Assembly: GCA_041662065.1 (NCBI GenBank)
Contig: JBAZTE010000004.1
Location: 197,620-261,619, forward strand
Length of the DNA: 64,000 nt
Source of the DNA: Bacteroidales bacterium
Lineage (GTDB): Bacteria > Bacteroidota > Bacteroidia > Bacteroidales > UBA12481
Direction: 5' to 3'
Shown here: piece by piece, positions 4,769-39,900 of the stretch
Numbering within the stretch: position 1 is the stretch's first letter
Layout: every line of letters begins with the position of its first letter
Translations under genes and position numbers: made by a program
Notes under the pieces: generated by a model
Told to the model about the DNA's origin: nothing
The model's database searches: none
What the model saw: only the letters and a program-made list of their open reading frames with translations

Positions 4769-4776
4769 TCTTCTTC

Positions 4777-5259: not shown

Positions 5260-6157
5260 CTAATATTTTCGAAATGATCGCCATCCGGGTATACACCCCG
5301 TTTTGTGCCTGCTGGAAATAATAGGCCTTGGGGTTAGCATCCACATCATAATTGATCTCGTTGACCCTCGGTAGCGGATGCAGAATCTTCATATTGGGTT
5401 TAGTGTTGGCCAGCATGGAATTCCTCAGGATATACACGTTTTTAACTTTCTCATATTCAAGTGGATCGGAGAAGCGTTCTTTCTGTACCCGGGTCATATA
5501 TACGATATCGGCATCGGCCATGTTATCGGCCAAATCCTTGTATTCATGGTATTCAACACCTTTCTTGTCGAGCAAAATCTTGTATTCCTGAGGCATCTTG
5601 AGTTCATCGGGGGCGATGAAAATGAACACCGGGTTGAAATCCGCCATGGCAATCAGCAGCGAATGCACGGTGCGGCCATATTTAAGGTCACCGATCATGC
5701 AGATTTTCAGATTTTCCAGCCGGCCCTGTGTTTTGCGGATGGAATACATGTCGAGCAGCGTCTGTGTGGGGTGCTGATGGGCGCCGTCGCCTGCATTCAC
5801 GATTGGCACGGGCGATACCTCGCTCGCATATTTGGCGCTGCCCTCCAGCGGATGGCGCATCACGATGAGATCGCTGTAATTGGATACCGTGAGGATGGTG
5901 TCTTTCAGCGTTTCCCCTTTGGAGGTGCTCGATGAGGCGGAATCCGAGAAGCCGATCACCCGGCCGCGCAAACGGTTCACGGCCGACTCAAAACTCAGGC
6001 GTGTGCGGGTCGACGGTTCAAAAAACAGGGTGGCCACCACATGTCCTTTCAGGATATCCTGGTTGGGCTTCTTTTCAAATTCAGCTGCAAGGTCCAGGAT
6101 CTGCAGCATCTCATCCTGATTGTAATCAGTGATGGATACAAGGCTTCTTCCTTTCAT
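5249..6157 (-). CDS. pyrB: aspartate carbamoyltransferase catalytic subunit
   Basis: 302 aa with the [17 protein letters not shown] and HPLPR signature motifs. Confidence 0.95.
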
Positions 6158-10440: not shown

Positions 10441-10537
10441 TCTTAAATCTAATTTTTGCCTTCTGCCTTTTGCCTTCTGCCCTGGTTCAAGGCATAAGGC
10501 ACAAGGCAGAAGGCAAAAATTAGTTGTAAGATTTAAG
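10441..10537. repeat. hairpin built from opposed heptamer arrays (NTGCCTT)x4 / (AAGGCAN)x4; likely rhaA terminator
   Basis: Left heptads at 10456-10483 and right heptads at 10489-10516, with outer arms TCTTAAATCT / AGATTTAAGA. Confidence 0.65.
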
Positions 10538-12279: not shown

Positions 12280-12300
12280 AGACGTGCCGTGGCACGTCTC
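12279..12300. terminator. hairpin GAGACGTGCC-GT-GGCACGTCTC overlapping the stop codon
   Basis: Perfect 10-bp stem. Same family as 7547-7576. Confidence 0.5.
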
Positions 12301-23536: not shown

Positions 23537-23573
23537 CTTGCAACTTGCAACCTGCAACCTGCAACCTGCAACA
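23537..23573 (+). repeat. GCAACCN heptamer array (about 5 units)
   Basis: CTTGCAA CTTGCAA CCTGCAA CCTGCAA CCTGCAA starts on the base after the wzz stop. Confidence 0.85.
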
Positions 23574-23581
23574 CTCTTACT

Positions 23582-25936: not shown

Positions 25937-25952
25937 GGAAGAGGGGGAGGAT

Positions 25953-26036
25953 GCGGGTTGCTGGTTGCTGGTTGCTGGTTGCTGGTTGCTGGTTGCAAGT
26001 TGCTGGTTGCAAGTTGCGGGTTGCTGGTTGTGGGTT
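25953..26036 (-). repeat. GCAACCN heptamer array, complement orientation (about 12 units)
   Basis: GCGGGTTGCTGGTTGCTGG...GTTGTGGGTT. Ends at the stop codon of the four-helix-bundle gene. Confidence 0.9.
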
Positions 26037-26400
26037 AGGTACGCCAGTTGTCTTCGACGTATTGGATGAAGTTATTTATTTGCTTACCAAGACCTTCATA
26101 TTCTGATATTAACTCATCAATTGGGTGTTGTTCAAAATGCAGAATATTTATCAAGTCCAACTGCGACATGGATTCATCACATGACGCTTGGGCAAAAATG
26201 AGATATCTTATAAATTCCATTTTGTACCGTCTCCGACCATAACCTTCGGCGATATTATCCTTAATGCTTTTAGATGATCTCCGAACCTGACTCCCCTGCT
26301 CATACATTTCATATTTAGGTAATGTCATGGTCATATGATGAACACGAATGGCCAGATTAAAAGCCTTTTGGTAAATCTCCAAATCTCTAAAACTTTTCAT
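26035..26400 (-). CDS. four-helix-bundle protein (23S rRNA intervening-sequence protein family)
   Basis: MKSFRDLEIYQKAFNLAIRVHHMT..LPKYEMYEQGSQVRRSSKSIKDNIAEGYGRR is the family signature. The ORF-track N-terminal extension to 26505 only translates the repeat array. Confidence 0.85.
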   Translation of the reverse strand: MKSFRDLEIYQKAFNLAIRVHHMTMTLPKYEMYEQGSQVRRSSKSIKDNIAEGYGRRRYKMEFIRYLIFAQASCDESMSQLDLINILHFEQHPIDELISEYEGLGKQINNFIQYVEDNWRT

Positions 26401-26413
26401 AGTATCTATTTTT

Positions 26414-26458
26414 AACCTGCAACCAGCAACCAGCAACCAGCAACCCGCAACCAGCAAC
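26414..26458 (+). repeat. GCAACCN heptamer array (about 6.5 units)
   Basis: AACCTGCAACCAGCAACCAGCAACCAGCAACCCGCAACCAGCAAC, inverted relative to 25953-26036. Confidence 0.9.
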
Positions 26459-26486
26459 AATATATAGACGCTAAATCCTGCCTCCA

Positions 26487-27569
26487 ATGGAAAAATCCCC
26501 ACCAAATCAAATCGACCTTTTCTCGATAGCCAAAACCTTGTGGCAGGGTCGGAAAACGGTCTTGTTATGGGTTATGATTGTTGTGATTGTTGGTTTGGTA
26601 ATTGCATTCTCCAGCCCCCGCGTTTACACAGCACGGACTGTTATGGTGCCGCAGGTGCAGTCGAAGAGTTCGGGCCTGGGGAGCCTGGGGAGTTTGGGAG
26701 GATTAGCGGCGATGGCCGGGATAAATCTGAGTAATCTGAATGCAGGCACAGAGGATATTTCACCGTTGGTGTATCCTGAGATTGTAAGAAGTTATTCGTT
26801 CCAGAAAGAAATTATGTATACACCACTCACCTGGAGATCGGTTGGTATGCCGGTCAGTTTGGTTGAGTATGTGCAGAAGTATCAGAGAATCGGATTATTT
26901 GGCAAGGTCAAGAAGGCCATTTTCAGGCTGCCGCGGACGGTTAAATCATGGTTTGCCAGGGAAGAAAGACCGATGGTTGCCGCTGCCGGTGATTCTTTAA
27001 CCCGGATCAGCGAAAACGAACAGGAATTGTGGGATGACATGTCTGAATCCCTGACCTTAAGCGTGGATAAGAAGAATGGTTTTATCACACTCACGGCATT
27101 GGGCCCCGAACCTCTGGTGACGGCCCAAATTGCCGATAAGGCAATGAACCTGCTGCAATCGAGGATCACGGAATTCCGCATCGAAAAGGCCCGGGAGAAC
27201 CTGAATTTCATACAGGGACGTTTCGATGACAAGAAAAAGGAATTTCAATCCACCCAGGATCGTCTGGCCCGCTTCCGCGACGGAAACCAGGGCATGAACT
27301 CCAACCGGGTGAAAACCGAGGAGGACCGTTTGCAAAGTGAATACCAGCTGGCATTCACGGTTTATTCGGAATTGGCAAAACAACTCGAGAGCGCTAAAAT
27401 TTCAGTAAAGGAGGACACCCCCGTTTTTTCAATCATCGAATCGGTTATTGTTCCGGTTAATCCTTCGAAGCCCAGGAAACTGGTGATTCTTATGTTTAGC
27501 TTCCTTTTGGGTGGTTTTTTAGGTATTGGTTTCCTGTTTGCCAAACAGCATTGGAACGAAGCAACCTGA
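26487..27569 (+). CDS. Wzz-type chain-length determinant protein (copy 2)
   Basis: 360 aa, colinear with 22427-23536 (..RKT.L......G...A..SP..YTA.TVMVPQ.. and ..ITEFRI.KA...L.FIQ.R..). Roughly one-third identical by eye. Confidence 0.8.
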   Translation: MEKSPPNQIDLFSIAKTLWQGRKTVLLWVMIVVIVGLVIAFSSPRVYTARTVMVPQVQSKSSGLGSLGSLGGLAAMAGINLSNLNAGTEDISPLVYPEIVRSYSFQKEIMYTPLTWRSVGMPVSLVEYVQKYQRIGLFGKVKKAIFRLPRTVKSWFAREERPMVAAAGDSLTRISENEQELWDDMSESLTLSVDKKNGFITLTALGPEPLVTAQIADKAMNLLQSRITEFRIEKARENLNFIQGRFDDKKKEFQSTQDRLARFRDGNQGMNSNRVKTEEDRLQSEYQLAFTVYSELAKQLESAKISVKEDTPVFSIIESVIVPVNPSKPRKLVILMFSFLLGGFLGIGFLFAKQHWNEAT

Positions 27570-27573
27570 CGTG

Positions 27574-28833
27574 ATGAGTCAATTCCGTTCAGGCATTGTT
27601 GGAAAGATTCGCCGGCATGGGGGTATTATCCAGAATTTTTCCTACCTGTCTGTCATCCAGCTGGTTAATCTCCTGGTAACCCTGGCAACCTATCCTTTTC
27701 TAATCCGGGTGCTCGGAAAGGAAGTGTTCGGATTGGTGGTGTACGCGCAGGCGATCATAACCTATCTGGTTGTACTCATCAGTTTCGGATTCCAGATCAG
27801 TGCAACACGGGAAGTTTCCATTCACCGGAATGATCCACGGAAGCTTAATGAGATATTCAGCAGTGTTCTGATTTTAAAGGGTTTATTATTCCTCGCTTCC
27901 GTTGGCCTGTTATTCCTGATAACCTTATTCATCCCGCAGGCCCGTGAACATAAGGTTCTTTTCCTTCTGAGCATGTTTACCTGCTTTTATGAGTTTATCT
28001 TTCCTTTCTGGTTTTTCCAGGGGATCGAAAAGATGGGTTATCTGACCCTCATAACCCTCATAACCAAACTAACTTTCTTTATCCTGATATTCCTGTTCAT
28101 CCGCAGCAAAAAAGACTATCTGCTGGTACCCCTGTTTAATGGGATCGGGTCGGTTCTTGCCGGTGTTATTTCCATCTGGATTGCGGTGGTCCGTGAAAAA
28201 GTCCGTTTCAGTTTCCAGCCATTCCATCGTCTTTGGCACTACTTTCGGGAAAGCAGCGCCCTCTTTGTTTCGAATTTCGCCAATCAGGTTTATGTAAATG
28301 CCAATAAAGTAATCGTAGGACTTTCATTGGGTATGGGAGAGGTCGCCCTGTATGATCTGGCAGAAAAGATCGTCCTGGCCATGAAAATCCCTCAAAACAT
28401 GTTGAATCAGGCGATTTTCCCAAAAATAATCAAGGAGCGCAATGTGGCATTTTCGAAAAAAATTCTCCTGTATTCCATGGTTGGCCAGGCAGCTTTTTTC
28501 TTTCTTATAGTCTTAACGTCTTCGGTCTTAGTTCTTCTTCTCGGTGGCAGGGAAATGTCGCAATCTACCGGTTTGTTACGCCTGTTGGCCTTAACCGTTC
28601 CCGTTAATGCAATCAGCAGCTTCCTTGGAATCCAGTTCCTTGTGGCGCATGGATTTAAAAGACTCTATACGAGGGTCATCGTTTTGTCGGTCGTGTTGTA
28701 TGCTTTGATGTGCACCGGGTTATGGGTAAATGGTTCAATAAGCCTGATTTCGGTTATCCTGGCTACCATCGCGACTGAAGTATTTGGTTTGGTTGCGATG
28801 ATGGTTATGGTGGGGAGGAGGAGGTTGGGGTGA
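27574..28833 (+). CDS. wzx: Wzx-type oligosaccharide flippase (copy 1)
   Basis: About 420 aa with 12 or more hydrophobic helices. N-terminal NFSYLSVIQLVNLLVTLATYPFLIRVLG is typical of the polysaccharide-biosynthesis (Wzx) family. Confidence 0.8.
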   Translation: MSQFRSGIVGKIRRHGGIIQNFSYLSVIQLVNLLVTLATYPFLIRVLGKEVFGLVVYAQAIITYLVVLISFGFQISATREVSIHRNDPRKLNEIFSSVLILKGLLFLASVGLLFLITLFIPQAREHKVLFLLSMFTCFYEFIFPFWFFQGIEKMGYLTLITLITKLTFFILIFLFIRSKKDYLLVPLFNGIGSVLAGVISIWIAVVREKVRFSFQPFHRLWHYFRESSALFVSNFANQVYVNANKVIVGLSLGMGEVALYDLAEKIVLAMKIPQNMLNQAIFPKIIKERNVAFSKKILLYSMVGQAAFFFLIVLTSSVLVLLLGGREMSQSTGLLRLLALTVPVNAISSFLGIQFLVAHGFKRLYTRVIVLSVVLYALMCTGLWVNGSISLISVILATIATEVFGLVAMMVMVGRRRLG

Positions 28834-28836
28834 AGT

Positions 28837-28890
28837 GGGTTGCGGGTTGCAAGTTGCTGGTTGCAAGTTGCTGGTTGCTGGTTGCTGGTT
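28837..28890 (-). repeat. GCAACCN heptamer array, complement orientation (about 8 units)
   Basis: GGGTTGCGGGTTGCAAGTTGCTGGTTGCAAGTTGCTGGTTGCTGGTTGCTGGTT, starting 4 nt after the wzx stop. Confidence 0.9.
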
Positions 28891-28940
28891 AGACAAGGCA
28901 TTCAGTGGGATAATTTGTGAAATAATTCAGGTCATTTTTT

Positions 28941-30269
28941 GTGTCAATTAGTGGAAGTAATTCTGTCCGTTGGCTGAAGAATGTCAACCCTGCAGAATGG
29001 GTTGATTTCCTGCTGATCAGCTATTTGTATTGGGTGGCGTTCGAGTGGACCATTCTTTCGAGGTTGGGGAATTACGGACTGATACAGGTGATCAGGAATA
29101 CGGTTGATCTGATTCCGATTGTCCTTTTACTGATCAGTATCATTGTTCTGAATCCAAAATTCAAAAGCCCTGAACTCAGGATATTCTCCGGTTTCGCCTT
29201 AATCATCATACTTTCGGCGATATCCTTGATTCTTGAGAGTACTGGGATCGCTCCTGTAACCGGCTATATCGGTGTTACAGTAAGATTTGTTCCGCTCATT
29301 GTTCTGGTCAGGTATACCAGCGTTGATTTTCAGCGGAAGTTGTTTAGTCAGGTAAGGATCATTTACTGGCTGCTCGCTGGACTCGGCCTGCTGAGTTTGT
29401 TCGGCAAAGATTGGTTCAACGGTCTTTTCCTGCCTTCGGTGGATGTTTTCGGTGAGGTAGTACCCACCACCTACAAGGATCCGGGAATAGGTGCCACGTT
29501 TATCAATACCGTAGAATTTGCCTTCTTTCTTCTCGGTCTTACGATTATCTATCTGGAGGGATCGCAATCAAAAAGGGAAAAGCTCTTTGTCAGCCTTCTG
29601 TCTTTTGTCTTATGTCTTTTGTCTTTCTCCATAGCTTCTGTCTTAGGTCTTTTTCTCATCTTCTTCCTCCGCAGTACCCGGAAAGTACTGGTAGCCACGG
29701 TTTTTACCGGATTGCTCATCATCGCTTTCCTGTTTTTCAATGGTTTTATCGTCCAGCTGCTCGGGATGGATATAAAATACTGGATTGAAATCTCGTCCGA
29801 GTTCAACCGGTTGGGCTACCTGACAAAAGTGTTCCCGGAGTTTTTGCACGGAGGCTTCAAGGATCTGTTCCTGGGAATGGGTTATGATGCCGGAGTGGTT
29901 GACCTGAAGTTGGCCAACTACCACAACACTCCGTTCGTGATGATCAACAACGAGAATAACCTGAAGTACCTGAAAGATGTATATTGGCTATCCATCCTGA
30001 TCGTCCAGGGATTCATCGCGTTCATTACCACTTTCTATATCCTGGTATCCGTTTGGATGGGCGCCGGGCGTGAAGGATCCGAAGCAAACTACCGGGCAGT
30101 AAAAATTTTTATTCTTTTGGCTTTATTCCTGGGGATGTTTAACCAGATTCTGGATATGAAAGCTTTTTCCTTTTGTTTCTGGCTGATGGCCGGAATGGCA
30201 CTGAATAAACCGGCTATTCTGACAGAGATATCGTTTGTTAAAACCCGTTTGTCGGGTGAAACCGCATGA
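28941..30269 (+). CDS. O-antigen polymerase/ligase-like (Wzy-type) polytopic membrane protein
   Basis: 442 aa with about 11 TM helices and a larger loop. Located between wzx and glycosyltransferases. GTG start. Confidence 0.55.
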   Translation: MSISGSNSVRWLKNVNPAEWVDFLLISYLYWVAFEWTILSRLGNYGLIQVIRNTVDLIPIVLLLISIIVLNPKFKSPELRIFSGFALIIILSAISLILESTGIAPVTGYIGVTVRFVPLIVLVRYTSVDFQRKLFSQVRIIYWLLAGLGLLSLFGKDWFNGLFLPSVDVFGEVVPTTYKDPGIGATFINTVEFAFFLLGLTIIYLEGSQSKREKLFVSLLSFVLCLLSFSIASVLGLFLIFFLRSTRKVLVATVFTGLLIIAFLFFNGFIVQLLGMDIKYWIEISSEFNRLGYLTKVFPEFLHGGFKDLFLGMGYDAGVVDLKLANYHNTPFVMINNENNLKYLKDVYWLSILIVQGFIAFITTFYILVSVWMGAGREGSEANYRAVKIFILLALFLGMFNQILDMKAFSFCFWLMAGMALNKPAILTEISFVKTRLSGETA

Positions 30270-31624
30270 AGAGACTGAAAGTACTGGTTTCAGCCCATGA
30301 ATTATCGCCATACCAGGGCTCCGAATGTGCAGTCGGGTGGAACCTGGTTACCCGGATAGCCCGTTATCACGACGTTACAGTTCTGTATGCGCGTGGCAGC
30401 CAGTTTTTCCCGGATGCTTACGAAACGGCCATCAGGAATTATTATACAGAGAACAAAAACGAGTTTAACATAAAATTTATTGCAGTTCCGCAACCCGATA
30501 CCACACTCTGGCTGGCAGCGATAAACAAGCGGATATCCAGGAACAGCTCCAGTATCGGCGTACCGTTTCTCTACTTCATCGGTTACCGGCTGTGGCAAAA
30601 AAGCGCCTACCGCATGGCCAAAACACAGGAACCATTTGACATCATCCATCATTTAACGTCCGTAACATTCAGAGAACCGGGTTATTTGTGGAGATTGCCA
30701 GTGCCCTTCGTATGGGGTCCAACGGGTGGAACCACAAATATTCCTATTCGTTTTTATCCGTTTATTGGGATCCGTGCTGCCAGTCATGAAGCTTTCCGTG
30801 CGATAACCAACCGACTGACACTTTGGTTCAGTTACAAGATTAGCCGGGCGATGAAAAAAAGCTCGCTGATCTACGCTTTTTCAGCGGAGGATCAGGCCTT
30901 GTTTCAAAGGAGGATGGTGAAGAGGGTGGAGGTGATGCTGGAGACCGGATGCGGGGAGGATGATGCAAGTTCCAATCAACCAGCAACCAGCAACCAGCAA
31001 CCTGCAACTTCCAATCATCTCCGCGTCCTCTGGTGCGGACGGTTGGTCAACTCTAAAGCGCTGGATATTTTACTTAAGGCCCTGGCAGGAGATCAGGATT
31101 TGATGAATCGGGTAAAGCTCACTATTGTGGGCGACGGTCCTTTGCGCAGTAAGTATGAAAAGCTGATCAAAAAGCTCTTCCCTCCAACCTGTAACCCGCA
31201 ACCTGCAACAAATATCTCTTTCACCGGCTGGCTCCCAAGGGATCAGGTAGTCCGCTGCATGAGGCAATCCGATGTGCTGGTCCATACCAGTTATCGGGAG
31301 GGTACCTCACACGTGATCCTTGAGGCACTATCTGCCGGCTTACCGGTAATCTGTCACGACATCAGTGGCATTTCCATCGCTGTGACCGGGGAATGCGGAA
31401 TCAAGGTTCCTTTAGTATCCTATAAAAAGAGCGTTCTCGGTTTCCGCGACGCGATTAGGGTTGCTAGTTGCAAGTTGCAAGATGCAAGTTGCTCCACACA
31501 AACTGCAACCGGCAACCTGCAACCTGCAACAAATCTCCGCTCGGGTGCCCTGAACAGGGCAAAAGAACTCTCCTGGGACTCGCTGGCCGAACGCATCTCC
31601 ACCGCTTATAATGATCTGCAATGA
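30266..31624 (+). CDS. GT4-family glycosyltransferase carrying three in-frame heptamer arrays
   Basis: GT-B layout. C-terminal domain ..VLWCGRLVNSKALDILLKAL.., ..SYREGTSHVILEALSAGLPVICHD.. (E-x7-E region). Confidence 0.8.
   Translation: MKRLKVLVSAHELSPYQGSECAVGWNLVTRIARYHDVTVLYARGSQFFPDAYETAIRNYYTENKNEFNIKFIAVPQPDTTLWLAAINKRISRNSSSIGVPFLYFIGYRLWQKSAYRMAKTQEPFDIIHHLTSVTFREPGYLWRLPVPFVWGPTGGTTNIPIRFYPFIGIRAASHEAFRAITNRLTLWFSYKISRAMKKSSLIYAFSAEDQALFQRRMVKRVEVMLETGCGEDDASSNQPATSNQQPATSNHLRVLWCGRLVNSKALDILLKALAGDQDLMNRVKLTIVGDGPLRSKYEKLIKKLFPPTCNPQPATNISFTGWLPRDQVVRCMRQSDVLVHTSYREGTSHVILEALSAGLPVICHDISGISIAVTGECGIKVPLVSYKKSVLGFRDAIRVASCKLQDASCSTQTATGNLQPATNLRSGALNRAKELSWDSLAERISTAYNDLQ
30969..31016 (+). 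repeat. GCAACCN array flanked by the 9-nt direct repeat TTCCAATCA, inside GT4 gene 1
   Basis: TTCCAATCA at 30969-30977 and 31008-31016. The 30 nt between is ACCAGCAACCAGCAACCAGCAACCTGCAAC. One repeat copy plus the array is 39 nt. Confidence 0.8.
31184..31210 (+). repeat. short GCAACCN array inside GT4 gene 1
   Basis: CCAACCTGTAACCCGCAACCTGCAACA is read as PTCNPQPAT. Confidence 0.7.
31458..31531. repeat. inverted pair of heptamer arrays (potential hairpin) inside GT4 gene 1
   Basis: GGGTTGCTAGTTGCAAGTTGCAAGATGCAAGTTGC (31458-31493) faces CTGCAACCGGCAACCTGCAACCTGCAACA (31503-31531). Read as VASCKLQDASCSTQTATGNLQPAT. Confidence 0.75.
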
Positions 31625-32871
31625 AGGTTCTCCTCATTAACAGGAATGACTTTGTGGATGGGGGAGCGGACCGGGTGTTTCTGAATACGTTTGATTTGTT
31701 GCAGGTTGCAGGTTGCGGGTTGCAGGTTGAGAAGTTTACAAGGGAAGATGTCGGGATGGAGACAATAGTTGATCCCCGCTCCTTATCAGTCTGGAAAAAG
31801 TTGCTGCATGTCAGAGACTATCTGTATAACCGTCGGGTGGCAGGTTGTCTGGATCGCAAAATCCAGGTGTTTCGTCCGGATGTGGCACATGTGCACCTGT
31901 TTTACGGGACCCTGTCAACCTCCATTTTAAAGGTTCTAAAAAAGAAAAAAGTACCGGTTGTCCTTACCGTACATGATTACCGGTTGCTTTGTCCGGCAAA
32001 TGCCATGCTCGACCGCCACGGACACATCTGTGAAAAGTGCTATAGAACAAAATATTATCAGTGTTTTATTAAACGGTGCTCCGGGGGAAATCTGTTTTTC
32101 AGCACAGTGATCATGCTGGAAGCCTACCTGAGAAAATGGATGTATAAACCAATAAAATTGATCGATCGCTTTATTTTCGTCAGTGATTTTAGCCGCAACA
32201 AGCATATTGAATTCGATCCGCGGTATATGGCAAAATCCATCCGGCTCTACAACATGGCCGACGAAAAACCTGGTATAATTCCAATAAAGGGTGACTATCT
32301 CCTCTTCTATGGAAGAATATCAAAGGAAAAAGGCCTGTTAACCCTGATCGAAGCAGTTAAAAACATTCAAGTAAAACTGATCATCGCCGGCCGCGGCCCT
32401 CAGGAAGAGGAAATAAAAAGACTGATAGACTATAAGACTATAAGACCCGCAACCAACAACCCGCAACCCGCAACCCGCAACCAGCAACCCGCAACCAGCA
32501 CCATCGACTTTGCCGGCTTCCTCTCAGGCAGCGAACTCGGGCAATTGATCCTTGGCTGCTCATTCGTGGTAGTTCCCTCGGAATGGTATGAAAACAATCC
32601 CATGACGGTGGTTGAGGCCTTCGCGCTGGGCAAGCCGGTCATCGGATCGCGGATCGGGGGGATACCCGAATTGGTAACTTCTGAAACCGGTTTTTTATTC
32701 GAACCCGGTAATCCTCTCTCACTGGCGGAGGCAATTGAAAAAGCTGTCAATCTATCCACAGAAAAATATAAAATGATGAGTGTTTCCTGCCGCGAATTTG
32801 CCAACATGAACTTTGACCGCAGGAAACATCTGGAACAACTTACCGGGATTTACCAACAAGTTGTGAATTGA
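31621..32871 (+). CDS. GT4-family glycosyltransferase carrying two in-frame heptamer arrays
   Basis: GGADRVF.., YGRISKEKG, PSEWYENNPMTVVEAFALGKPVIGSRIGGIPELV (E-x7-E). Confidence 0.85.
   Translation: MKVLLINRNDFVDGGADRVFLNTFDLLQVAGCGLQVEKFTREDVGMETIVDPRSLSVWKKLLHVRDYLYNRRVAGCLDRKIQVFRPDVAHVHLFYGTLSTSILKVLKKKKVPVVLTVHDYRLLCPANAMLDRHGHICEKCYRTKYYQCFIKRCSGGNLFFSTVIMLEAYLRKWMYKPIKLIDRFIFVSDFSRNKHIEFDPRYMAKSIRLYNMADEKPGIIPIKGDYLLFYGRISKEKGLLTLIEAVKNIQVKLIIAGRGPQEEEIKRLIDYKTIRPATNNPQPATRNQQPATSTIDFAGFLSGSELGQLILGCSFVVVPSEWYENNPMTVVEAFALGKPVIGSRIGGIPELVTSETGFLFEPGNPLSLAEAIEKAVNLSTEKYKMMSVSCREFANMNFDRRKHLEQLTGIYQQVVN
31696..31729 (-). repeat. GCAACCN array (complement orientation) inside GT4 gene 2
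   Basis: GTTGCAGGTTGCAGGTTGCGGGTTGCAGGTTG is read as LQVAGCGLQVE. Confidence 0.8.
32446..32502 (+). repeat. GCAACCN array (about 8 units) inside GT4 gene 2, preceded by a GACTATAA x2 octamer repeat
   Basis: CCGCAACCAACAACCCGCAACCCGCAACCCGCAACCAGCAACCCGCAACCAGCACC is read as RPATNNPQPATRNQQPATST. Confidence 0.85.
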
Positions 32872-32873
32872 CC

Positions 32874-33566
32874 ATGAAGCGCCTGATCAACACTATTGTC
32901 CGTAAGCTCGGAAGATCCGGCTACCGGTTGGATGACCATATCTCTTCTTACAGTCTTCTGGTCTTATTAGTCTCAAAGTCTTGCCAGCTGGTCCGGGGTT
33001 TGTGCCTCAAGGCTACGCTGAAAAAATCATCCGGACTGCTCTTTGTGGGCAGAAGATGCCGGATCAGGTACCGACACCTGATCACAACCGGAAAAACGCT
33101 GACTCTGGGTGATTATGTTGAAATCAATGCCCTCTCAAAAGCGGGGGTTCACCTGGGCGACAATGTGTCCATACTGAAAGGAACAATCATAGAATGTACC
33201 GGGGTCATGCGTAACCTGGGTGAAGGACTGACGATCGGGAACAATGTTGGGATCGCGCAGAACGGTTTTATCCAGGTCAGGGGGAAGGTGGTGATCGGCG
33301 ACAACGTCATTTTCGGACCGAATGTTTCCGTTTTCTCGGAGAATCACGTATTTGACAATCCGGATATCCCGGTTTCCATTCAGGGGGAGACCCGAAAAGG
33401 AGTCACCATTGAGGAAGGTGCCTGGATCGGCACCCGTGCTGTGATCCTCGACGGCGTAACGGTAGGCAGGAACAGCATTGTGGCCGCCGGGAGTATAGTC
33501 ACACGCGACGTGCCTGCATACACCGTGGTGGGCGGAGTGCCGGCGAAAGTACTTAGAAGCAGATAG
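32874..33566 (+). CDS. left-handed beta-helix (hexapeptide-repeat) O-acetyltransferase
   Basis: Hexapeptide repeats GDNV.I..G..I.., IGNNVGI, IGDNVIFGPNV, IGTRAVILDGVTVG, with C-terminal VGGVPAKV. Confidence 0.8.
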   Translation: MKRLINTIVRKLGRSGYRLDDHISSYSLLVLLVSKSCQLVRGLCLKATLKKSSGLLFVGRRCRIRYRHLITTGKTLTLGDYVEINALSKAGVHLGDNVSILKGTIIECTGVMRNLGEGLTIGNNVGIAQNGFIQVRGKVVIGDNVIFGPNVSVFSENHVFDNPDIPVSIQGETRKGVTIEEGAWIGTRAVILDGVTVGRNSIVAAGSIVTRDVPAYTVVGGVPAKVLRSR

Positions 33567-33614
33567 TTGCTAGTTGCTAGTTGCTAGTTCAACCAGCAAC
33601 CAGCAACCCGCAAC
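33567..33614. terminator. imperfect hairpin formed by (GTTGCTA)x3 facing (CAACCAG/C)x3.5
   Basis: Starts on the base after the TAG stop. The arms pair with about one mismatch per heptad. There is no T-tract, so terminator function is uncertain. Confidence 0.45.
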
Positions 33615-33637
33615 AAAAAGACCTCTAACACACTATC

Positions 33638-34531
33638 ATGAAACGAATCTACATCGCCGGATGCGGTGGTATGCTGGGTGATGCATTTTATGTGCGGTTT
33701 AAAGATACGTACAAGCTGAAATGCACCGACATCGATGTGAATTCCGACTGGCTTTCTTTCCTGGATTTCAGGGATTTGGAGGCCTACCGGAAAGATGTCA
33801 GGGAATTCAGGCCGGATTATCTGTTTCATTTGGGAGCGTATACTGACCTGGAGTATTGCGAAATGAATCCGGATGACACCTATCGTACAAACACTGAGGC
33901 AGTTGCGAATGCCGTTATAATCGCCAACGAACTGGATATCCCTTTGCTGTATATCAGCACTGCCGGGATCTTCGACGGCAAAAAGGATGTATATGATGAT
34001 TGGGATCTTCCCAATCCGATTGGTGTATATGCCCGGTCGAAGTATCTGGGAGAAAGGCATGTGGTGGAAAATGTTGAGAAACATCTGGTTTGCCGCGCCG
34101 GCTGGATGATGGGAGGTGGCCCGGGGAAGGATAAGAAATTCATCGGAAAACTGATGAGGCAGATCGGGGAGGGGAGCCAGGAACTGTTTATCGTGACGGA
34201 TAAGGATGGAACACCGACTTTTACCCATGATTTTGCCCTGAACGTGAAGGAACTCATCGAAAAGGAGCGCTGGGGGCTGTATAATATGGCCTGCGAAGGT
34301 TTTACCAGCCGGATGGAGGTTGCACAGGAACTGATCAGGTTACTGAACCTCCGGGAGAAGATTACCATCACCCCTGTTTCCTCGGATTACTACCGGGGAA
34401 CCTATTTTGCCCAGCGCCCTCCGAGTGAGCGCCTGGTAAACCGTAAACTGAGGAATCTCGGACTGAACCGCATGCGTAACTGGAGGATCGCACTGAAGGA
34501 TTATCTCGATAATCACTATTACGGGAATTGA
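33638..34531 (+). CDS. RmlD-like NAD(P)-dependent sugar reductase (SDR family)
   Basis: IYIAGCGGMLG (Rossmann fold), YARSKYLGE (YxxxK), about 297 aa as in dTDP-4-dehydrorhamnose reductases. Confidence 0.7.
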   Translation: MKRIYIAGCGGMLGDAFYVRFKDTYKLKCTDIDVNSDWLSFLDFRDLEAYRKDVREFRPDYLFHLGAYTDLEYCEMNPDDTYRTNTEAVANAVIIANELDIPLLYISTAGIFDGKKDVYDDWDLPNPIGVYARSKYLGERHVVENVEKHLVCRAGWMMGGGPGKDKKFIGKLMRQIGEGSQELFIVTDKDGTPTFTHDFALNVKELIEKERWGLYNMACEGFTSRMEVAQELIRLLNLREKITITPVSSDYYRGTYFAQRPPSERLVNRKLRNLGLNRMRNWRIALKDYLDNHYYGN

Positions 34532-34536
34532 GGACG

Positions 34537-35592
34537 ATGCGGAAAATCGCCATTATCGGATCTCACGGAATATATGCCAATTATGGCGGTTGGGACGAAC
34601 TGGTCCGGAATCTTGCCGAACGGAAACCGGAAGATCTGCAATACATCATCTTTAATTCGGCCGGCTATCCTGCTCAAAAAGAACCTCCTGATGGAGTAAG
34701 CATCCGGCAGTTGAAATTCAGGGCCGATGGATACCAGGGTCTGTTTTACGATTTCTGGTCGATCCTGGTCTGCTGGCGGAAAGCAAATACCCTGCTGCTC
34801 CTGGGCGCCCAGGGAATTCCACTGGCCGCTTTTCTGCGCCTGTTTCGCAAATTCAGGATAGTCGCCAATGCCGGCGGATTCGAATGGGAGCGGCCGAAAT
34901 TCGGTTTTTTTCTTAAACGATATCTGAAGTGGTGTTTCAATCTGAGCATGCGATACGCCGATACTGTTATCCTGGATAACCCCCATTACCGGAATTTTCT
35001 ACCCGAAAAGGTGAAGGCTGATGTCAAAGTTATACCCTATGGCGGTGAAATCGATACCAGCCTGGAAGTGAATGAAGGATTACTCGAAAAATACCCGTTT
35101 CTGGACAAGCCCTATTTTCTATCGGTCAGCCGCCCATTAAAGGATAATCAGCTGGAGGAGCTGTGCAGCAGCTTTATTGGATCGGACCACACACTGGTGC
35201 TGATTTCGAATTTTTCCAGCACTCCCTACGGGATATCGGTATTGAAGAAGTACAGGAGTATCGGTAACCTGATACTGATCAACGGGCTCTATGTGAAGCC
35301 GGAACTCGACCTCATCCGCCGGAAATGCAAGGCCTATATCCATACCCATACACTCTGCGGAACCGCACCTTCATTGGTTGAGATGATAATCGCCCAAAGG
35401 CCGGTCCTTTCGGTCGATAACCCCCAAAACAGGAACACCCTTCGGGAGGAAGGGTTTTTCTATAAATCCTTTACACAGGTTCACGAATTGATTAACAACG
35501 ATTCCGATCTGTCGCGGTACATTCCCCCGAAAGAGCTCTGCGACCGGTATCAATGGAGTACTATCGTTGCTGAATATGAATCAACCTTCTGA
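34537..35592 (+). CDS. DUF1972-type GT4 glycosyltransferase
   Basis: N-terminal KIAIIGSHGIYANYGGWDELVRNLAE matches the DUF1972 pattern (IIG.RGIPA.YGGFET). Confidence 0.7.
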   Translation: MRKIAIIGSHGIYANYGGWDELVRNLAERKPEDLQYIIFNSAGYPAQKEPPDGVSIRQLKFRADGYQGLFYDFWSILVCWRKANTLLLLGAQGIPLAAFLRLFRKFRIVANAGGFEWERPKFGFFLKRYLKWCFNLSMRYADTVILDNPHYRNFLPEKVKADVKVIPYGGEIDTSLEVNEGLLEKYPFLDKPYFLSVSRPLKDNQLEELCSSFIGSDHTLVLISNFSSTPYGISVLKKYRSIGNLILINGLYVKPELDLIRRKCKAYIHTHTLCGTAPSLVEMIIAQRPVLSVDNPQNRNTLREEGFFYKSFTQVHELINNDSDLSRYIPPKELCDRYQWSTIVAEYESTF

Positions 35593-36628
35593 TAAAAAGA
35601 AAATCCTGATCACCGGCGCCTATGGTTTCGTTGGCACTAATCTTTTGAAGGAGTTATGCAATGATTATCAATTAATTGCCCTTGACCTGGAATCCACCTC
35701 ACCCCCAACCCCCTCTCCCGCGCTCCCTTCGGTCACGGGAGAGGGGAAGGAGCCCTATTCAGACTTCTTCTCTTGGCAGGATCTGGATTCCATCCCCTGG
35801 GATACCCTCGACACCATCATCCACCTGGCTGGAAAGGCCCACGATACACGAAACATTGCTGATGAAAAGGAGTACTTTGAAGTCAATGTCGGGCTGACGG
35901 AAAAAATCGCTGAACGGTTTCAAAACTCGACTGCCCGTAAACTGATCTGTTTCAGCTCAGTAAAAGCAGTCGCCGATTCTTTTCCGGAAGGATTCTTAAC
36001 CGAAGAGACAACCCCGGCTCCAACCACGCCATACGGCCGATCCAAACTCGCCGCCGAGAAAATACTTCTGCAACCCGCAACCCGCAACCAACAACCTGCA
36101 ACCTGCAACCTGCAACCTGCAACCAGCAACCAGCAACCTGCAACCCGCAACCTCCTCTACCTCCTCCGCCCCTGCATGATCCACGGCCCCGGCAACAAAG
36201 GCAACCTGAACGAACTCGTCCGGTTTGTAAAAACAGGACTTCCCTGGCCGCTGGGCGCTTTTGAAAACCAGCGTTCCTTCACTTCAATTGCCAATTTGGT
36301 TTTTGTAATCAGGCAACTGATCGATAAGGAGATAGAGCCGGGCATTTACCAGGTGGCCGACGATGAACCGCTTTCAACGAATGAATTGATCAGGATGATT
36401 GCGTACTCGATGGGTAAAAGAGCGCGGATAATGAAACTTCCACCGGGTTTGATCAGGGGGCTGGCCCGATTGGGCGACCGTTTACCTTTTCCCCTGAACA
36501 GTGAACGTCTGCAGAAACTCACTGAATCCTACCGGGTCTCGAATCAGAAACTGAAAAATGCCCTCGGCATCGAACGAATGCCCGTAACCGCTGCCGAGGG
36601 GATGAGAAATACTCTTAAAACATTTTAG
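35576..36628 (+). CDS. NAD-dependent epimerase/dehydratase with two in-frame repeat insertions
   Basis: ILITGAYGFVGTNL, YGRSKLAAE (YxxxK), LRPCMIHGPG. Precedes the initiating sugar transferase. Confidence 0.8.
   Translation: MNQPSDKKKILITGAYGFVGTNLLKELCNDYQLIALDLESTSPPTPSPALPSVTGEGKEPYSDFFSWQDLDSIPWDTLDTIIHLAGKAHDTRNIADEKEYFEVNVGLTEKIAERFQNSTARKLICFSSVKAVADSFPEGFLTEETTPAPTTPYGRSKLAAEKILLQPATRNQQPATCNLQPATSNQQPATRNLLYLLRPCMIHGPGNKGNLNELVRFVKTGLPWPLGAFENQRSFTSIANLVFVIRQLIDKEIEPGIYQVADDEPLSTNELIRMIAYSMGKRARIMKLPPGLIRGLARLGDRLPFPLNSERLQKLTESYRVSNQKLKNALGIERMPVTAAEGMRNTLKTF
35710..35746 (+). repeat. GC hairpin CCCCTCTCCCG-N15-CGGGAGAGGGG inside the epimerase CDS
   Basis: Perfect 11-bp stem. Translated as part of ..TPSPALPSVTGEGKE.. 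Confidence 0.75.
36069..36152 (+). repeat. GCAACCN array, exactly 12 units (84 nt = 28 codons), inside the epimerase CDS
   Basis: Units counted by hand. Read as LQPATRNQQPATCNLQPATSNQQPATRN. Confidence 0.9.
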
Positions 36629-37315
36629 ATGAAGAGGTCATTTGACATTGTAATAAGTTTTCTCGCGATGGTCGTGGCTCTTCCTTTCATGATCCCGGTG
36701 ATGATCATTCTTAAACTGACCGGAGAGCACTATGTGTTCTATCGCCAGGCACGGGTCGGGCAACACGGGAAGAGCTTCAGGATGTATAAATTCTCCACCA
36801 TGCTGCTTAAGAGCCCCGAACTGCTCAGTGGCGACATCACACTCAGGAAAGATCCGCGGGTACTGCCTTTCGGCCGCTTTCTGAGGATCACCAAGATCAA
36901 TGAGATCCCTCAACTGATCAATGTGTTTAAGGGAGATATGTCATTGGTGGGTCCGCGGCCGATGCCCCCGGCTAATTTCAGCTTTTATACCCCCGGGGCT
37001 CAGGCGATGATCCTGAAACTTCAGCCCGGCATGACGGGTGTCGGGACCATCATCTTCCGGGAGGAGGAAGAGATGCTGGCCTCCAGCCCGCTGGGCCCCG
37101 AAGAGACTCACCGCCAATGGATGAGCCCGCACAAGGCCCGCCTCGAAGAATGGTACCTGAACAATCGCTCGCTTTGGGTCGATCTGAAAATCCTGTTCCT
37201 GACCCTCTGGGTGATACCATTCAAGGACAGCGCGCTGCCGTACCGGGTACTGAAGGGGCTGCCAGAGTTTCCGGGGGAGCTGAGAAAGGCGGCTGGCAAT
37301 GGGCGTGGCAATTAG
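36629..37315 (+). CDS. initiating phosphoglycosyl (bacterial sugar) transferase, small PglC/WbaP-C-terminal type
   Basis: KRSFDIV.S......LPF, RVG..GK.F.MYKF.TM, DPRV..FGRFLR...I.E.PQL.NV..G.MSLVGPRP. Confidence 0.9.
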   Translation: MKRSFDIVISFLAMVVALPFMIPVMIILKLTGEHYVFYRQARVGQHGKSFRMYKFSTMLLKSPELLSGDITLRKDPRVLPFGRFLRITKINEIPQLINVFKGDMSLVGPRPMPPANFSFYTPGAQAMILKLQPGMTGVGTIIFREEEEMLASSPLGPEETHRQWMSPHKARLEEWYLNNRSLWVDLKILFLTLWVIPFKDSALPYRVLKGLPEFPGELRKAAGNGRGN

Positions 37316-37460
37316 AGGTTGCGATTGTTATGATGGTTGTGATTGTTATGATAGTTATGATGGTTATGATGGTATGACCCAACCACAACAACCACAACAA
37401 CCATAACCACCATAACAACCATAACCACCATAACAACCATAACCACCACAACAACCACAA
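37316..37460. repeat. roughly 145-nt imperfect hairpin built from opposed 9-mer arrays (GTTATGATG-like / CAACCATAA-like)
   Basis: Left arm of about 7 units (37316-37378), right arm of about 9 units (37380-37460). Starts right after the TAG stop and ends 9 nt before the next GTG start. Confidence 0.8.
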
Positions 37461-37469
37461 CTTCTCTCC

Positions 37470-38900
37470 GTGCTCTCCAAATACCTCTACAACCTCCTCT
37501 TCATCCTCAGTAACATCCTGTTCCCGGTAGTCACCTTTTCCTGGGCAGCGCGGGTTCTGGGGCCGGAAGGGATTGGAAAAGTGCAGGTGGTGCTCAATTT
37601 CGCCCAGTATTTTGTTCTGATCGCCGCCCTGGGAATACCGGCATACGGGATGAGGGAGGTGGCCAAAGTGGTTGGGGACCCTACCAAACTCTCCAGACTG
37701 TTTTCCGAACTTTTAGTGATCAACCTGTTGACGACATTCGTTCTTTGTACCATTTATTTTATTGTTATATCATCAATCGGGTGGTTTCAACCGGATATCC
37801 ATCTTTATTATTTAGGAGGTGCCCTCGTTCTATCCGGTTTTCTAACCATCGACTGGTTTTATACCGGATCGGAACAGTTCAGATACCTATCGCTGAGGTC
37901 AGTGATAATAAAATCAATTTCCCTTGTTGCCCTGATTCTATTTGTGAGAACACCGCATGACCTGATTATCTATCTGTTTATCAATGTTCTGGCTACCATT
38001 ACGACCAATTTATGGAATCTGTTGAACCTGCCGGTGAAAATAAAGATCAGGTTGCGGAAACTGGAGTTGCGAAAGCACATGCCGGGTCTGCTGATTCTCT
38101 TTGGAACTACCCTGGTAATCAGCATGTATACCGTTATGGATATTTTGTTACTGGGGTTCCTGACAGATAACCGGTCGGTGGGTTTCTACACGGCGGCTAT
38201 CAAGATCAGCAAGATCATGATTCCGCTGATTGCCTCACTGGGAGTGGTGCTGATACCGAAAATTACAAGGAGTCTGGCCGAAGACGATATGAAATCCCTG
38301 AACACATTGACCGGCCAATCCTTTGCTTTCATCTGTTTGCTGGGCGTGCCGGTTTCGGCAGGTTTGCTGGTGTTTGCGCCTGAGATCATGCTCCTCTTTT
38401 CAGGATCAGGATTTACTGAAGCGATACCTGTCATGCAGATGACGTCCGCACTGGCATTGATCATCGGACTCGGGCACTTGTTCGGCCTGCAACTTTTAGT
38501 CCCGGGAGGTTATGAAAAGAAGTACCTGTATGCCACGATTCTGGGCATGATTACCAGCCTGGTTATCAATCTTACACTAATCCCTGTTATCCGTGAGAAG
38601 GGAGCAGCATTGGCCATTGTCCTCAGTGAGGCAGTGGTAACCGGGATGGCCTGGTATTACGTAAAAAAACTTTTACCTCTGAAATTCAACTGGTCCCTGA
38701 TACTAAATGCCGTCCTGGCCTGCCTGGTTTTTATTCCGGTTGCCATTCTGTTACGGAAATTAATTCCCGGACCGGTTCTGCGATTGACATTGGCAGTAGT
38801 TGTTTCTGCCGGGTTCTATTTTCTGATCCAGATAGCGGTTTTCCGGGAAAAACATGTCCGGGAGGCGGCCCTCCTGCTGGTAAACAACTGGTTAAGATAA
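37470..38900 (+). CDS. wzx: Wzx-type flippase (copy 2)
   Basis: 476 aa, polytopic. The N-terminal pattern ..ILFPVVTFSWAARVLGPEGIGKV is typical of the polysaccharide-biosynthesis/MOP family. GTG start. Confidence 0.75.
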   Translation: MLSKYLYNLLFILSNILFPVVTFSWAARVLGPEGIGKVQVVLNFAQYFVLIAALGIPAYGMREVAKVVGDPTKLSRLFSELLVINLLTTFVLCTIYFIVISSIGWFQPDIHLYYLGGALVLSGFLTIDWFYTGSEQFRYLSLRSVIIKSISLVALILFVRTPHDLIIYLFINVLATITTNLWNLLNLPVKIKIRLRKLELRKHMPGLLILFGTTLVISMYTVMDILLLGFLTDNRSVGFYTAAIKISKIMIPLIASLGVVLIPKITRSLAEDDMKSLNTLTGQSFAFICLLGVPVSAGLLVFAPEIMLLFSGSGFTEAIPVMQMTSALALIIGLGHLFGLQLLVPGGYEKKYLYATILGMITSLVINLTLIPVIREKGAALAIVLSEAVVTGMAWYYVKKLLPLKFNWSLILNAVLACLVFIPVAILLRKLIPGPVLRLTLAVVVSAGFYFLIQIAVFREKHVREAALLLVNNWLR

Positions 38901-38904
38901 TCTG

Positions 38905-39900
38905 ATGATTCCGGACGTTTCGGTCATTATTGTCAATTTTAATACGGAGGATTACCTGGTTGAGTGCATCGGCTCGGTATTCGAACAGACCGGGAGCCGG
39001 CAAGTTGAAATTATCGTCGTGGATAATGCCTCCGACGTGGATCCCTCAGCAAAGATCACGGCTATTTATCCACACGTCAGGATGATCCGGAATACGATGA
39101 ACCGGGGATTCGGTGCCGCCAACAATACCGGCGCCGCTGAGGCAAGAGGGAAATTCCTGTTTTTTTTGAATCCGGATACCGTTCTGCTGAACGACAGTAT
39201 CGGGATCTTCCATCGATTTATGAATTCCGATAATAGAACTGACCGGGTGGTTGCTTGTGGGGGGAACCTGGTCAGATCGGACAAATCCCCGGCTCCTGCC
39301 TGGGGTAATCTTCCAACCCTCAGCTTGCTGTTCAGCGACTTGGGATTCAGAAAGTTATATAAAAATTATTATGAAAGCCGGTTGGCCACCAACGGTTACT
39401 GCAATTCTCAAGAAGACAGACCGGTACCATACATTGCCGGGGCCGACCTGTTCATACGGAAAGATATATTCCTCAAGCTAGGCGGATTCAGTGAACAGTA
39501 CTTCATGTATTTTGAGGATGCGGATCTCGGTTACCGGCTGAAACGGGAAGGATATAAAACATACCTGTTGCCGGAAGCTAAAATCCTTCATCATGAAAGT
39601 CTGAGTACCAGGAATGGCAACGGATTCAATTACCGGAAATATGAATTGCTGGAAAAAAGCAAATATCTCTATTTCAAAAAAAATCACGGTTTTATCGCGG
39701 CTCATGTCGCAAAAGATTTACAATTGATCTCTCTTCTTGTCTACGCTATTGCTCATCGTTTAGCTAACGTGCAACTTGCAACCAGCAACCCGCAACCAGC
39801 AACCCGCAACCCGCATCCTGTAACCCGCAACCCGCATCCTGTAACCAGCAACCCGCAACCCGCAACCCGCAACCTTTTGAAAATCACCCTCGATGCCTGA
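38905..39900 (+). CDS. GT2-family glycosyltransferase with a heptamer-array C-terminal tail
   Basis: VSVIIVNFNT, VVDNASDV, FLNPDT (DxD region), YFMYFEDADLGYR. Confidence 0.85.
   Translation: MIPDVSVIIVNFNTEDYLVECIGSVFEQTGSRQVEIIVVDNASDVDPSAKITAIYPHVRMIRNTMNRGFGAANNTGAAEARGKFLFFLNPDTVLLNDSIGIFHRFMNSDNRTDRVVACGGNLVRSDKSPAPAWGNLPTLSLLFSDLGFRKLYKNYYESRLATNGYCNSQEDRPVPYIAGADLFIRKDIFLKLGGFSEQYFMYFEDADLGYRLKREGYKTYLLPEAKILHHESLSTRNGNGFNYRKYELLEKSKYLYFKKNHGFIAAHVAKDLQLISLLVYAIAHRLANVQLATSNPQPATRNPHPVTRNPHPVTSNPQPATRNLLKITLDA
39770..39874 (+). repeat. GCAACCN array, exactly 15 units (105 nt = 35 codons), forming the GT2 C-terminus
   Basis: Units counted by hand, including the variants CGCATCC/TGTAACC. 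Read as (V)QLATSNPQPATRNPHPVTRNPHPVTSNPQPATRN. Confidence 0.9.

Follow-up and report, generated by a model that had tools for sequence, protein, structure and literature searches.

A triplex-type motif and a heptanucleotide array translated within insertion-tolerant loops of a Bacteroidales epimerase

Background

A 64-kb stretch of DNA from a Bacteroidales bacterium (GenBank assembly GCA_041662065.1, contig JBAZTE010000004.1, positions 197,620 to 261,619 of the forward strand; hereafter the window, with position 1 as its first letter) carries a gene for an NAD-dependent epimerase/dehydratase of the extended short-chain dehydrogenase/reductase (SDR) type. This gene is read in frame through two unrelated repeats, a G/C-rich element with a hairpin in a loop termed site 1 and an array of heptanucleotides in a loop termed site 2. 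The kinds of repeat themselves are known; new here are an in-frame, conserved motif of the BoxC/PIT/TM type and an SDR loop that serves as a family-wide sink for tandem repeats.

The closest described counterpart of the site 1 element is the triplex motif CCCTCNCCC-N3-6-GGGNGAGGG-N3-GGGNGAGGG, a G/C-rich intrastrand motif that was formerly named BoxC and then PIT elements (Maher and colleagues), of which 3610 copies are found in 262 proteobacterial genomes (Holder et al. 2015; PMC4666352). In Escherichia coli K-12, each of the 23 copies lies between genes. The motif can fold into a triplex in vitro, but no stable triplex has been detected in vivo, and the motif has neither promoter nor terminator activity. 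The copies are dispersed, and a comparison of E. coli strains shows more rearrangement at the loci that carry them than at control sites (PMC4666352).

The site 2 array belongs with the heptamer repeats, which are abundant and partly intragenic in bacteria (PMC4679880, PMC4692102). Repeats of GGGAATC and GGGGAYT are intragenic in 7-11% of cases in Xanthomonas and in about 32% in Nostoc (PMC4692102). Heptanucleotide long simple-sequence repeats (LSSRs) are the subject of Mrazek 2007, as cited in PMC4679880.

The epimerase gene and its product

The open reading frame (ORF) at 35576-36628 matches the Pfam family Epimerase (PF01370, E 1.5e-23), and its product has the hallmarks of extended-SDR nucleotide-sugar epimerases and dehydratases, namely a glycine motif of the TGxxGxxG form (TGAYGFVG), a Ser/Tyr/Lys triad (Ser127 and Tyr153-x3-Lys157) and a two-domain Rossmann fold. 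The columns of Ser127, Tyr153 and Lys157 are invariant in an alignment of the 120 closest homologues (305-431 aa). Among proteins of solved structure, MoeE5 is the best relative (E 1.9e-15), and a Foldseek search of the PDB places the structural model nearest to UDP-sugar 4-epimerases and dehydratases (E about 1e-18). An NCBIfam search found no equivalog at or above its cut-off, so that no substrate can be assigned. An identical protein from a metagenome-assembled genome (MAG) is named 'NAD-dependent epimerase/dehydratase family protein [Bacteroidales bacterium]' in the source database. The AlphaFold2 model is confident almost throughout, with a mean predicted local distance difference test score (pLDDT) of 87.5 and a predicted template modelling score (pTM) of 0.88. 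The main regions of low pLDDT are both coil and comprise residues 41-60 (block means 47 and 67) and 171-190 (52 and 55); milder dips occur in blocks 91-100 (76) and 131-140 (68).

A first-pass annotation of the window had described an NAD-dependent epimerase gene that reads through both repeats with its frame and catalytic motifs undisturbed, and the ORF, the Pfam match and the motifs listed above bear this out. The gene is intact, and it is most likely functional. It is scarcely credible that the repeats are assembly errors, or that a dead gene stays open merely because its repeats are free of stops. Short-read contigs do break in the arrays, one of them (L249) being identical to window positions 26420-36120 with both of its ends inside arrays, and (GCAACCN)n is free of stop codons in all six frames with any base at N. 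However, separate assemblies agree through the whole gene, about 160 codons 3' of the array are still in frame with every conserved residue kept, and the orthologues are full-length genes in syntenic operons. Because short-read contigs of the organism (L249, L001 and L250) start or end in heptamer arrays, the arrays fragment assemblies, and unit numbers taken from MAGs need caution.

Two insertion-tolerant loops across the family

Site 1 is the loop after strand beta2. Site 2 lies between the Tyr-x3-Lys helix (residues 152-165 in the model), at whose C-terminus it starts, and the LRPCMIHGPGN strand; when the model is read together with the general SDR fold, this end of the helix would point away from the catalytic Tyr. 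In the alignment, whose insert-free natural homologues serve as the comparison for a segment-free form of the protein, the site 1 loop is 13 aa long in 101 of the 120 homologues and 28 aa long in the window protein. The site 2 loop is 16 aa long in 33 homologues and 35 aa long in the window protein, and the remaining 87 homologues have enlarged site 2 loops of up to 119 aa. Both segments thus exceed the minimal loops of the family, which is the outcome of the multiple alignment that the first-pass annotation had proposed as a check. The site 2 inserts are mutually unrelated low-complexity peptides, many of them with periods of 7 or 8 residues (VNSQQST, TLNSEPE, ERGRDGET). On a neighbour-joining tree built from the core, Fitch parsimony requires three or more events at site 1 and 17 or more gains or losses at site 2.

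The DNA of three orthologues (L002, L003 and L005), which are full-length epimerase genes in syntenic operons, shows that repeat classes trade sites between relatives. The window gene has a triplex motif at site 1 and twelve GCAACCN units at site 2. L002 also has the triplex motif at site 1 and two ATCCCGGC-N4-GCCGGGAT hairpins at site 2. In L003, the site 1 motif contains a nested extra hairpin, and site 2 holds a degenerate copy of the L002-type hairpin, a triplex motif, five GATACCY units and one GCAACCT unit. In L005, the triplex motif is found at site 2, and site 1 carries 3.7 copies of TCACGCG that leave the loop length unchanged on balance. Distant homologues have still other repeats at site 2: thirteen TCAACAG units in L247, fifteen copies of a 21-nt unit made of three heptamers in L246, and 8-mers and 24-mers in L248. 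Each of these three loci also has its own unit, or related ones, at scattered places. In L247, a decayed and internally deleted partial copy of the epimerase gene (8229-8665) lies 1.3 kb upstream of the intact gene and retains 14 TCAACAG units, the intact copy having 13.

As judged from the alignment and from these loci, site 2 is a family-wide hot spot and sink for tandem repeats of the host genome. The first-pass annotation had suggested that two repeat families hit the epimerase gene independently. That two distinct classes are present in an intact frame stands, but their meeting in one gene is not due to chance: insertions are tolerated at both positions throughout the family, and site 2, enlarged in most homologues, has seen many separate gains or losses. 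Both repeats occur in one gene because these loops, site 2 above all, tolerate such DNA.

The likely explanation is that slippage-prone or non-B DNA accumulates where proteins tolerate it, and that two surface loops of an intact epimerase have absorbed repeats. Structure-forming repeats would multiply in the operon and be retained at harmless places such as gene junctions, C-terminal tails and disordered loops. The site 2 array has probably grown by replication slippage and may exchange sequence with the other GCAACCN arrays of the operon. Because (GCAACCN)n is stop-free in six frames, any array length that keeps the frame would persist as a disordered loop rich in Gln, Pro, Ala, Thr and Asn, whereas out-of-frame lengths would truncate the enzyme and be selected against, or be transient at best. 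In the homologues, the loops would be filled by whichever repeat their own genome carries. The inserts are probably a tolerated by-product of repeat-rich DNA and not a new function.

It is very unlikely that the inserts are instead selected protein features, that is, flexible linkers or interaction loops, for example for docking on the membrane sugar transferase encoded by the neighbouring gene. Such a role would fit the enlargement of site 2 in 72% of close homologues and the position of a Bac_transf gene, which encodes a membrane-bound initiating sugar transferase, directly 3' of the epimerase gene. However, the inserts of different homologues are unrelated in sequence, add 3 to 103 aa and take their composition from the local DNA repeat, the minimal loop suffices in 33 of the 120 homologues, and both regions are coil of low pLDDT in the model.

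Heptamer arrays of the polysaccharide operon

Tandem Repeats Finder places the epimerase array at 36068-36153 with 12.3 copies and 88% matches, in agreement with the array of 12 GCAACCN units spanning 28 codons that had been noted at 36069-36152; it is translated as LQPATRNQQPATCNLQPATSNQQPATRNL. The heptamer had been regarded as a hit on this gene, but it is also translated in three more genes of the operon and occurs in several intergenic gaps. The dimer GCAACCNGCAACC is found 72 times in the window against 0.27 expected, always within 23540-39874. About 15 heptamer arrays lie on both strands between 23.5 and 39.9 kb, six of them at gene junctions and the remainder translated in four genes (Table 1). 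They belong to a plus-strand polysaccharide operon that encodes Wza- and Wzz-like proteins, flippases, a polymerase-like protein, two GT4 glycosyltransferases and an acetyltransferase, followed by an RmlD-like protein, a DUF1972 glycosyltransferase, the epimerase, the initiating sugar transferase, a GT2 glycosyltransferase and a UDP-GlcNAc 2-epimerase. The first GT4 gene has its Pfam Glycos_transf_1 match over residues 242-370, and its L003 orthologue is without all four of its arrays. The L005 orthologue of the GT2 gene has other heptamers (GTTATCG and AACCGAC) in its C-terminal part.

The GCAACCN arrays are heptanucleotide LSSRs in that head-to-tail units within the 5-11-nt range occur beyond chance and the unit is recurrent, as judged within the 64-kb window. 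Like the cyanobacterial short tandemly repeated repetitive (STRR) sequences, TAACTGA and GGGAATC/GGGGAYT, they are dispersed tandem arrays of 4-15 units of 7 nt; most stand at gene junctions, inverted pairs are frequent, and some lie within genes. Unlike these, GCAACCN is stop-free and tightly clustered in one polysaccharide operon, and four genes are translated through its arrays, at loops where homologues have inserts too. Runs of at least four GCAACCN units are found in at least 120 genome stretches of many phyla; in the 120 stretches listed, 66 runs are apparently intergenic and 32 lie in long ORFs.

In the two GT4 paralogues, the arrays at 31181-31209 and 32445-32500 lie in Glycos_transf_1, just before what is apparently the same F-x-G strand (..ISFTGWL and ..IDFAGFL); the loop next to this strand would be another repeat-tolerant loop. 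Repeats with a 9-nt unit are found 3' of the sugar-transferase gene as an adjacent inverted array pair (37317-37373 and 37380-37461; GGTTGTGAT.. and CAACCATAA..), and 9-mers (CAACAACCA) end the orthologous sugar-transferase gene of L005 (3633-3672).

The array as a candidate contingency switch

Surface-glycan genes are a classic home of repeat-driven switching (PMC4666352, PMC4692102), and the site 2 array could be such a contingency switch, in which slipped-strand mispairing toggles the epimerase by frameshift. The three array-bearing glycosyltransferases would then switch likewise, giving a combinatorial surface polysaccharide. As in the contingency loci of Haemophilus, Neisseria and Campylobacter surface-glycan genes, a non-triplet unit forms a tract within ORFs of a polysaccharide locus, so that a change by one unit shifts the frame and truncates the product. 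A gain or loss of one or two units is predicted to yield products of 198-231 aa without the substrate-binding half, whereas a change by three units keeps the frame and gives 343 or 357 aa. Four perfect CAACCTG units stand in a run, and arrays occur in four genes of a single operon.

The comparison also brings out differences, and a switch of this kind is considered unlikely. No length variant is seen among L001, L249 and L250, which are consensus assemblies that hide minority variants and of which some possibly come from the same sample, so that this test of length is a weak one. Over 2.7 kb, L001 departs from the window at a single base and likewise has 12 units, nine other arrays of the window are matched exactly by L249 and L250, and the closest protein clusters (P0001-P0006) have one member sequence each. 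The units are imperfect, and the arrays lie in mid-gene loops and not near the N-terminus. They are also abundant outside coding DNA, in intergenic gaps, and in C-terminal tails, where frame is irrelevant. In the homologues, the same loop holds hairpins and 8-mers instead.

The triplex motif at site 1

At site 1, the first-pass annotation had reported a G/C-rich hairpin with an 11-bp stem that is translated in frame. Its coordinates and sequence agree with the present analysis, in which CCCCTCTCCCG-N15-CGGGAGAGGGG with a perfect 11-bp stem occupies exactly 35710-35746, but the element is not a plain hairpin. A third block, CCTCACCCCC, lies at 35697-35706, 2 nt upstream of the hairpin, and had been missed; with this block, the element is 50 nt long and consists of three blocks, the hairpin being the core of a triplex motif of the BoxC/PIT/TM type. 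On the minus strand, 35697-35746 reads CCCCTCTCCCG-N15-CGGGAGAGGGGG-TT-GGGGGTGAGG, and in the protein the motif is read as ..STSPPTPSPALPSVTGEG... The hairpin is one of three perfect hairpins with stems of at least 11 bp in the 64 kb, and its RNA fold has a free energy of -27.8 kcal/mol (z = -2.8; none of 200 shuffles equal). For the looser pattern CCCTCNCC-N3-25-GGNGAGGG, the window has one match where 0.00 are expected, and no second hairpin copy was found in the window with up to one mismatch or by the looser pattern. A consensus scan detected no intrinsic terminator or promoter at the hairpin, and the stem is not followed by a run of T.

The element has a block of the pyrimidine type (CCCTCNCCC) and two of the purine type (GGGNGAGGG) on one strand, in the same order (CCCTCTCCC, GGGAGAGGG, GGGTGAGG(G)) as in the TM-ECO/BoxC/PIT motifs, and the third block agrees with the consensus at 8 of 9 positions. 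The published family is dispersed in many copies and tied to local sequence instability. In contrast to the published consensus, with a first loop of 3-6 nt and a second of about 3 nt, the first loop of the window motif is 15 nt long (11-15 nt in the copies of relatives), the second being 2-6 nt depending on the register. The host is a member of the Bacteroidales, whereas TM-ECO motifs are catalogued in Proteobacteria, and the window copy is translated within the epimerase ORF, unlike the uniformly intergenic copies of E. coli K-12. Because all three blocks are present but the first loop has 15 nt, the element is treated as a long-loop variant of the BoxC/PIT/TM family on the basis of the published consensus. 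When the element was searched by BLAST in 5,426 E. coli genomes, the one match, of 23 nt (E = 6), was uninformative. The number of copies per locus ranges from one in the 64-kb window to three in 12 kb of L003, of which two are those of epimerase sites 1 and 2 and the third (12250-12295) is apparently non-coding.

Metagenome stretches were scanned with the pattern CCTCACCCC-N2-6-CCCTCTCC-N6-30-GGAGAGGG, and at least 142 triplex copies were found in at least 120 of them, with up to four per contig. Among the matches listed, 39 copies lie within long ORFs, and most copies have 7-8 nt between the 8-nt blocks of the pattern, short loops being abundant. Eight Pfam-verified genes among these matches contain the motif in frame, encoding HsdM, HolB, NuoG, MnmA, AceE, a GHMP kinase, NuoN and a TonB-dependent receptor, and in all eight the Pfam domain matches surround the element or flank it on both sides. 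Judging by such in-frame copies in Pfam-verified genes, translated triplex motifs are widespread in uncultured bacteria. On a contig of 41% GC (L224), a TonB-dependent-receptor-like ORF (3380-5575, minus strand) apparently contains two translated triplex-like segments (..sltpspvgragegw.. and HLTPALSKSGEG).

Palindromic DNA within genes is also known from Rickettsia, where Rickettsia palindromic elements (RPEs) are said, after Ogata et al. 2000, to be selfish palindromic DNA inserted in frame within protein-coding genes. RPEs are about 100-150 bp long, have family consensus sequences and are specific to Rickettsia. In both cases, palindromic DNA is translated as an extra surface peptide and the host protein is not destroyed. 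Unlike an RPE, the window element is a G/C-rich, triplex-type element of 50 nt in a member of the Bacteroidales and shares its gene with a tandem array. Identity with an RPE was rejected on account of length, host and the BoxC-type blocks, and only the in-frame behaviour is common to both.

Conservation of the motif, concerted units and associated genes

Three observations weigh against a purely passive accumulation of repeats in tolerant loops. The first is that the triplex segment is far better conserved than expected of neutral passenger DNA. Two relatives whose proteins are 72% and 68% identical to that of the window have orthologues of the site 1 copy, which on this comparison is old, inserted before the split from these two sequenced relatives, and not a private hit on this gene as had been supposed. 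Over window positions 35695-35746, 49 of 52 bases are identical to L002 and 48 of 52 to L003 (92-94%), whereas the remainder of the gene is 73-74% identical to these orthologues (binomial p 2e-4 and 6e-4). Consistently, the share of conserved residues that use the same codon is 88-93% in the segment versus 51-52% outside it (Fisher p 0.002-0.004). This conservation points to a constraint at the nucleotide level or to recent homogenisation. Because the orthologous copies at site 1 are closer to one another than the site 1 copy of L003 is to the other triplex copies of that locus, the comparison argues for constraint on the nucleotide sequence and not for homogenisation within the genome.

Such a constraint would be expected if the in-ORF motif were selectively kept as a nucleic-acid structure and were not a passenger; its role could lie in the DNA, as a hot spot of replication or recombination, or in the mRNA, as a signal for pausing or processing. 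In addition to the synonymous sites, which are conserved far above those of the remainder of the gene in two orthologues, a perfect stem is kept (11 bp in the window and 13 bp in L002), the predicted RNA fold is stable, and repeats accumulate beside the site 2 triplex motif of L003, which fits the reported instability of motif loci (PMC4666352). A selected structure nevertheless appears doubtful. The comparison comprises just two orthologues, the loop sequence varies among other copies of the family, and the site 1 copy of L003 is broken by a nested hairpin while the gene still reads through. The consensus scan gave no terminator and the stem has no T-run at its 3' side, the E. coli motifs are without promoter or terminator activity and without a stable triplex in vivo, and purine-motif triplexes are not formed in RNA (PMC4666352).

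The second observation is that two L003 arrays share a changed unit, GATACC, in place of the GCAACC of the window (Table 1). The N-terminal part of the second GT4 gene has GGTATCA units in L003 and GGTTGCA units in the window, and at epimerase site 2 a GCAACCT unit stands at the 3' border of the array in both. Because the same unit change occurs at two orthologous arrays, slippage within a single array does not explain it and exchange is needed; the pattern suggests unit turnover plus exchange between arrays.

The third observation is that the array family of the window is tightly clustered, being confined to 16 kb, and that arrays of this kind flank genes for 23S rRNA intervening sequence (IVS) proteins; on both grounds, the seeding of arrays may be more specific than random slippage. 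In the gap 25937-26486 of the window, inverted GCAACCN arrays lie 8 and 14 nt from the ends of the gene at 26038-26400 (Table 1), which makes this gene a possible source or partner of the arrays. In 1.63 Mb of loci, many of them chosen for their arrays, six genes of the PF05635 type were found, a small and partly biased sample; each of the six has an array of 7- or 8-nt units no more than 60 nt from one end or the other, and in four of them both ends are flanked in this way. The array scan contributed three of these genes, and none occurs in 640 kb of triplex-motif loci. A literature search on IVS-protein genes flanked by tandem repeats returned nothing relevant. In L246, about 72 intergenic heptamer units of the AAGTCGG and GAGGTCGG types (85-592) adjoin the IVS-protein gene, and an AACCAGC (GCAACCA) array lies at 4888-4933.

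From these data, the arrays could be the inverted-repeat arms of small cassettes similar to 23S rRNA IVSs, each with a 23S_rRNA_IVP / bAvd-like gene, that spread through the operon including the tolerant loops of ORFs, with array exchange or the cassette protein keeping a genome-specific unit, GCAACC here and GATACC in L003. An origin of this kind is quite unlikely as matters stand, and accumulation of slippage-prone DNA in tolerant loops remains the preferred explanation.

Further repeats of the window

Outside the polysaccharide operon, an inverted pair of another heptamer (TGCCTTC and CAAGGCA; 10454-10515) folds into a hairpin whose 14-bp stem is perfect. The 12-nt unit ATGTCGGTAAAG is perfectly repeated 4.1 times at 18185-18233 with 100% matches. 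An Rfam scan of the whole window returned two tRNAs and nothing else; these genes lie in tandem on the minus strand (1966-2049 and 2072-2155), where Tandem Repeats Finder calls a 106-nt repeat.

Table 1. Positions of the repeats and genes discussed in the text (window coordinates unless a locus is named)
Feature	Position	Strand	Remarks
Extended-SDR NAD-dependent epimerase/dehydratase gene	35576..36628	+	350 aa, intact; Pfam, AlphaFold2, Foldseek, conserved triad
G/C-rich three-block intrastrand triplex motif (BoxC/PIT/TM-like)	35697..35746	-	Site 1; sequence and published consensus
Twelve GCAACCN units	36069..36152	+	Site 2; 84 nt = 28 codons
Four GCAACCN arrays in first GT4 gene (30266-31624)	30977-31008, 31181-31209, 31460-31492 / 31499-31530	+	Last two form an adjacent inverted pair
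Reverse-orientation array in second GT4 gene (31621-32871, +)	31698-31729		Reads VAGCGLQV
Second array in second GT4 gene (31621-32871, +)	32445-32500		Reads PATNNPQPATRNQQPATS
About 15 heptamer units in GT2 glycosyltransferase gene (38905-39900)	39771..39874	+	C-terminal tail
Intergenic heptamer arrays at operon junctions	23535-23572, 25952-26030, 26414-26458, 28838-28890		25952-26030 and 28838-28890 are reverse complement
Adjacent inverted intergenic heptamer pair	33564-33589 / 33590-33614		
Arrays with concerted units, window	36069-36152 and 31698-31729		
Arrays with concerted units, L003	10617-10663 and 5861-5896		
'23S rRNA intervening sequence protein' gene	26038..26400	-	121 aa, four-helix bundle; Pfam PF05635, E 1.2e-26
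Further IVS-protein genes	L112 4887-5249, L026 1201-1539, L086 2-88, L246 628-1002, L248 8102-8464		

Implications

BoxC/PIT/TM motifs have hitherto been treated as intergenic and proteobacterial, and here one is translated in an enzyme of a Bacteroidales bacterium. For annotation and structure prediction in this SDR subfamily, low-complexity inserts are to be expected at site 2, and a gene should not be called a pseudogene on that ground. The present locus offers two handles on the origin and role of bacterial heptanucleotide repeats, a question that dates back to the description of the cyanobacterial STRR sequences: the concerted unit change at orthologous arrays and the link to IVS-protein cassettes. 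Gut Bacteroides are known for invertible promoters, which are a different type of glycan switch. If phase variation by the heptamer arrays were true, the polysaccharide operon would be a combinatorial glycan switch in an environmental Bacteroidales bacterium.

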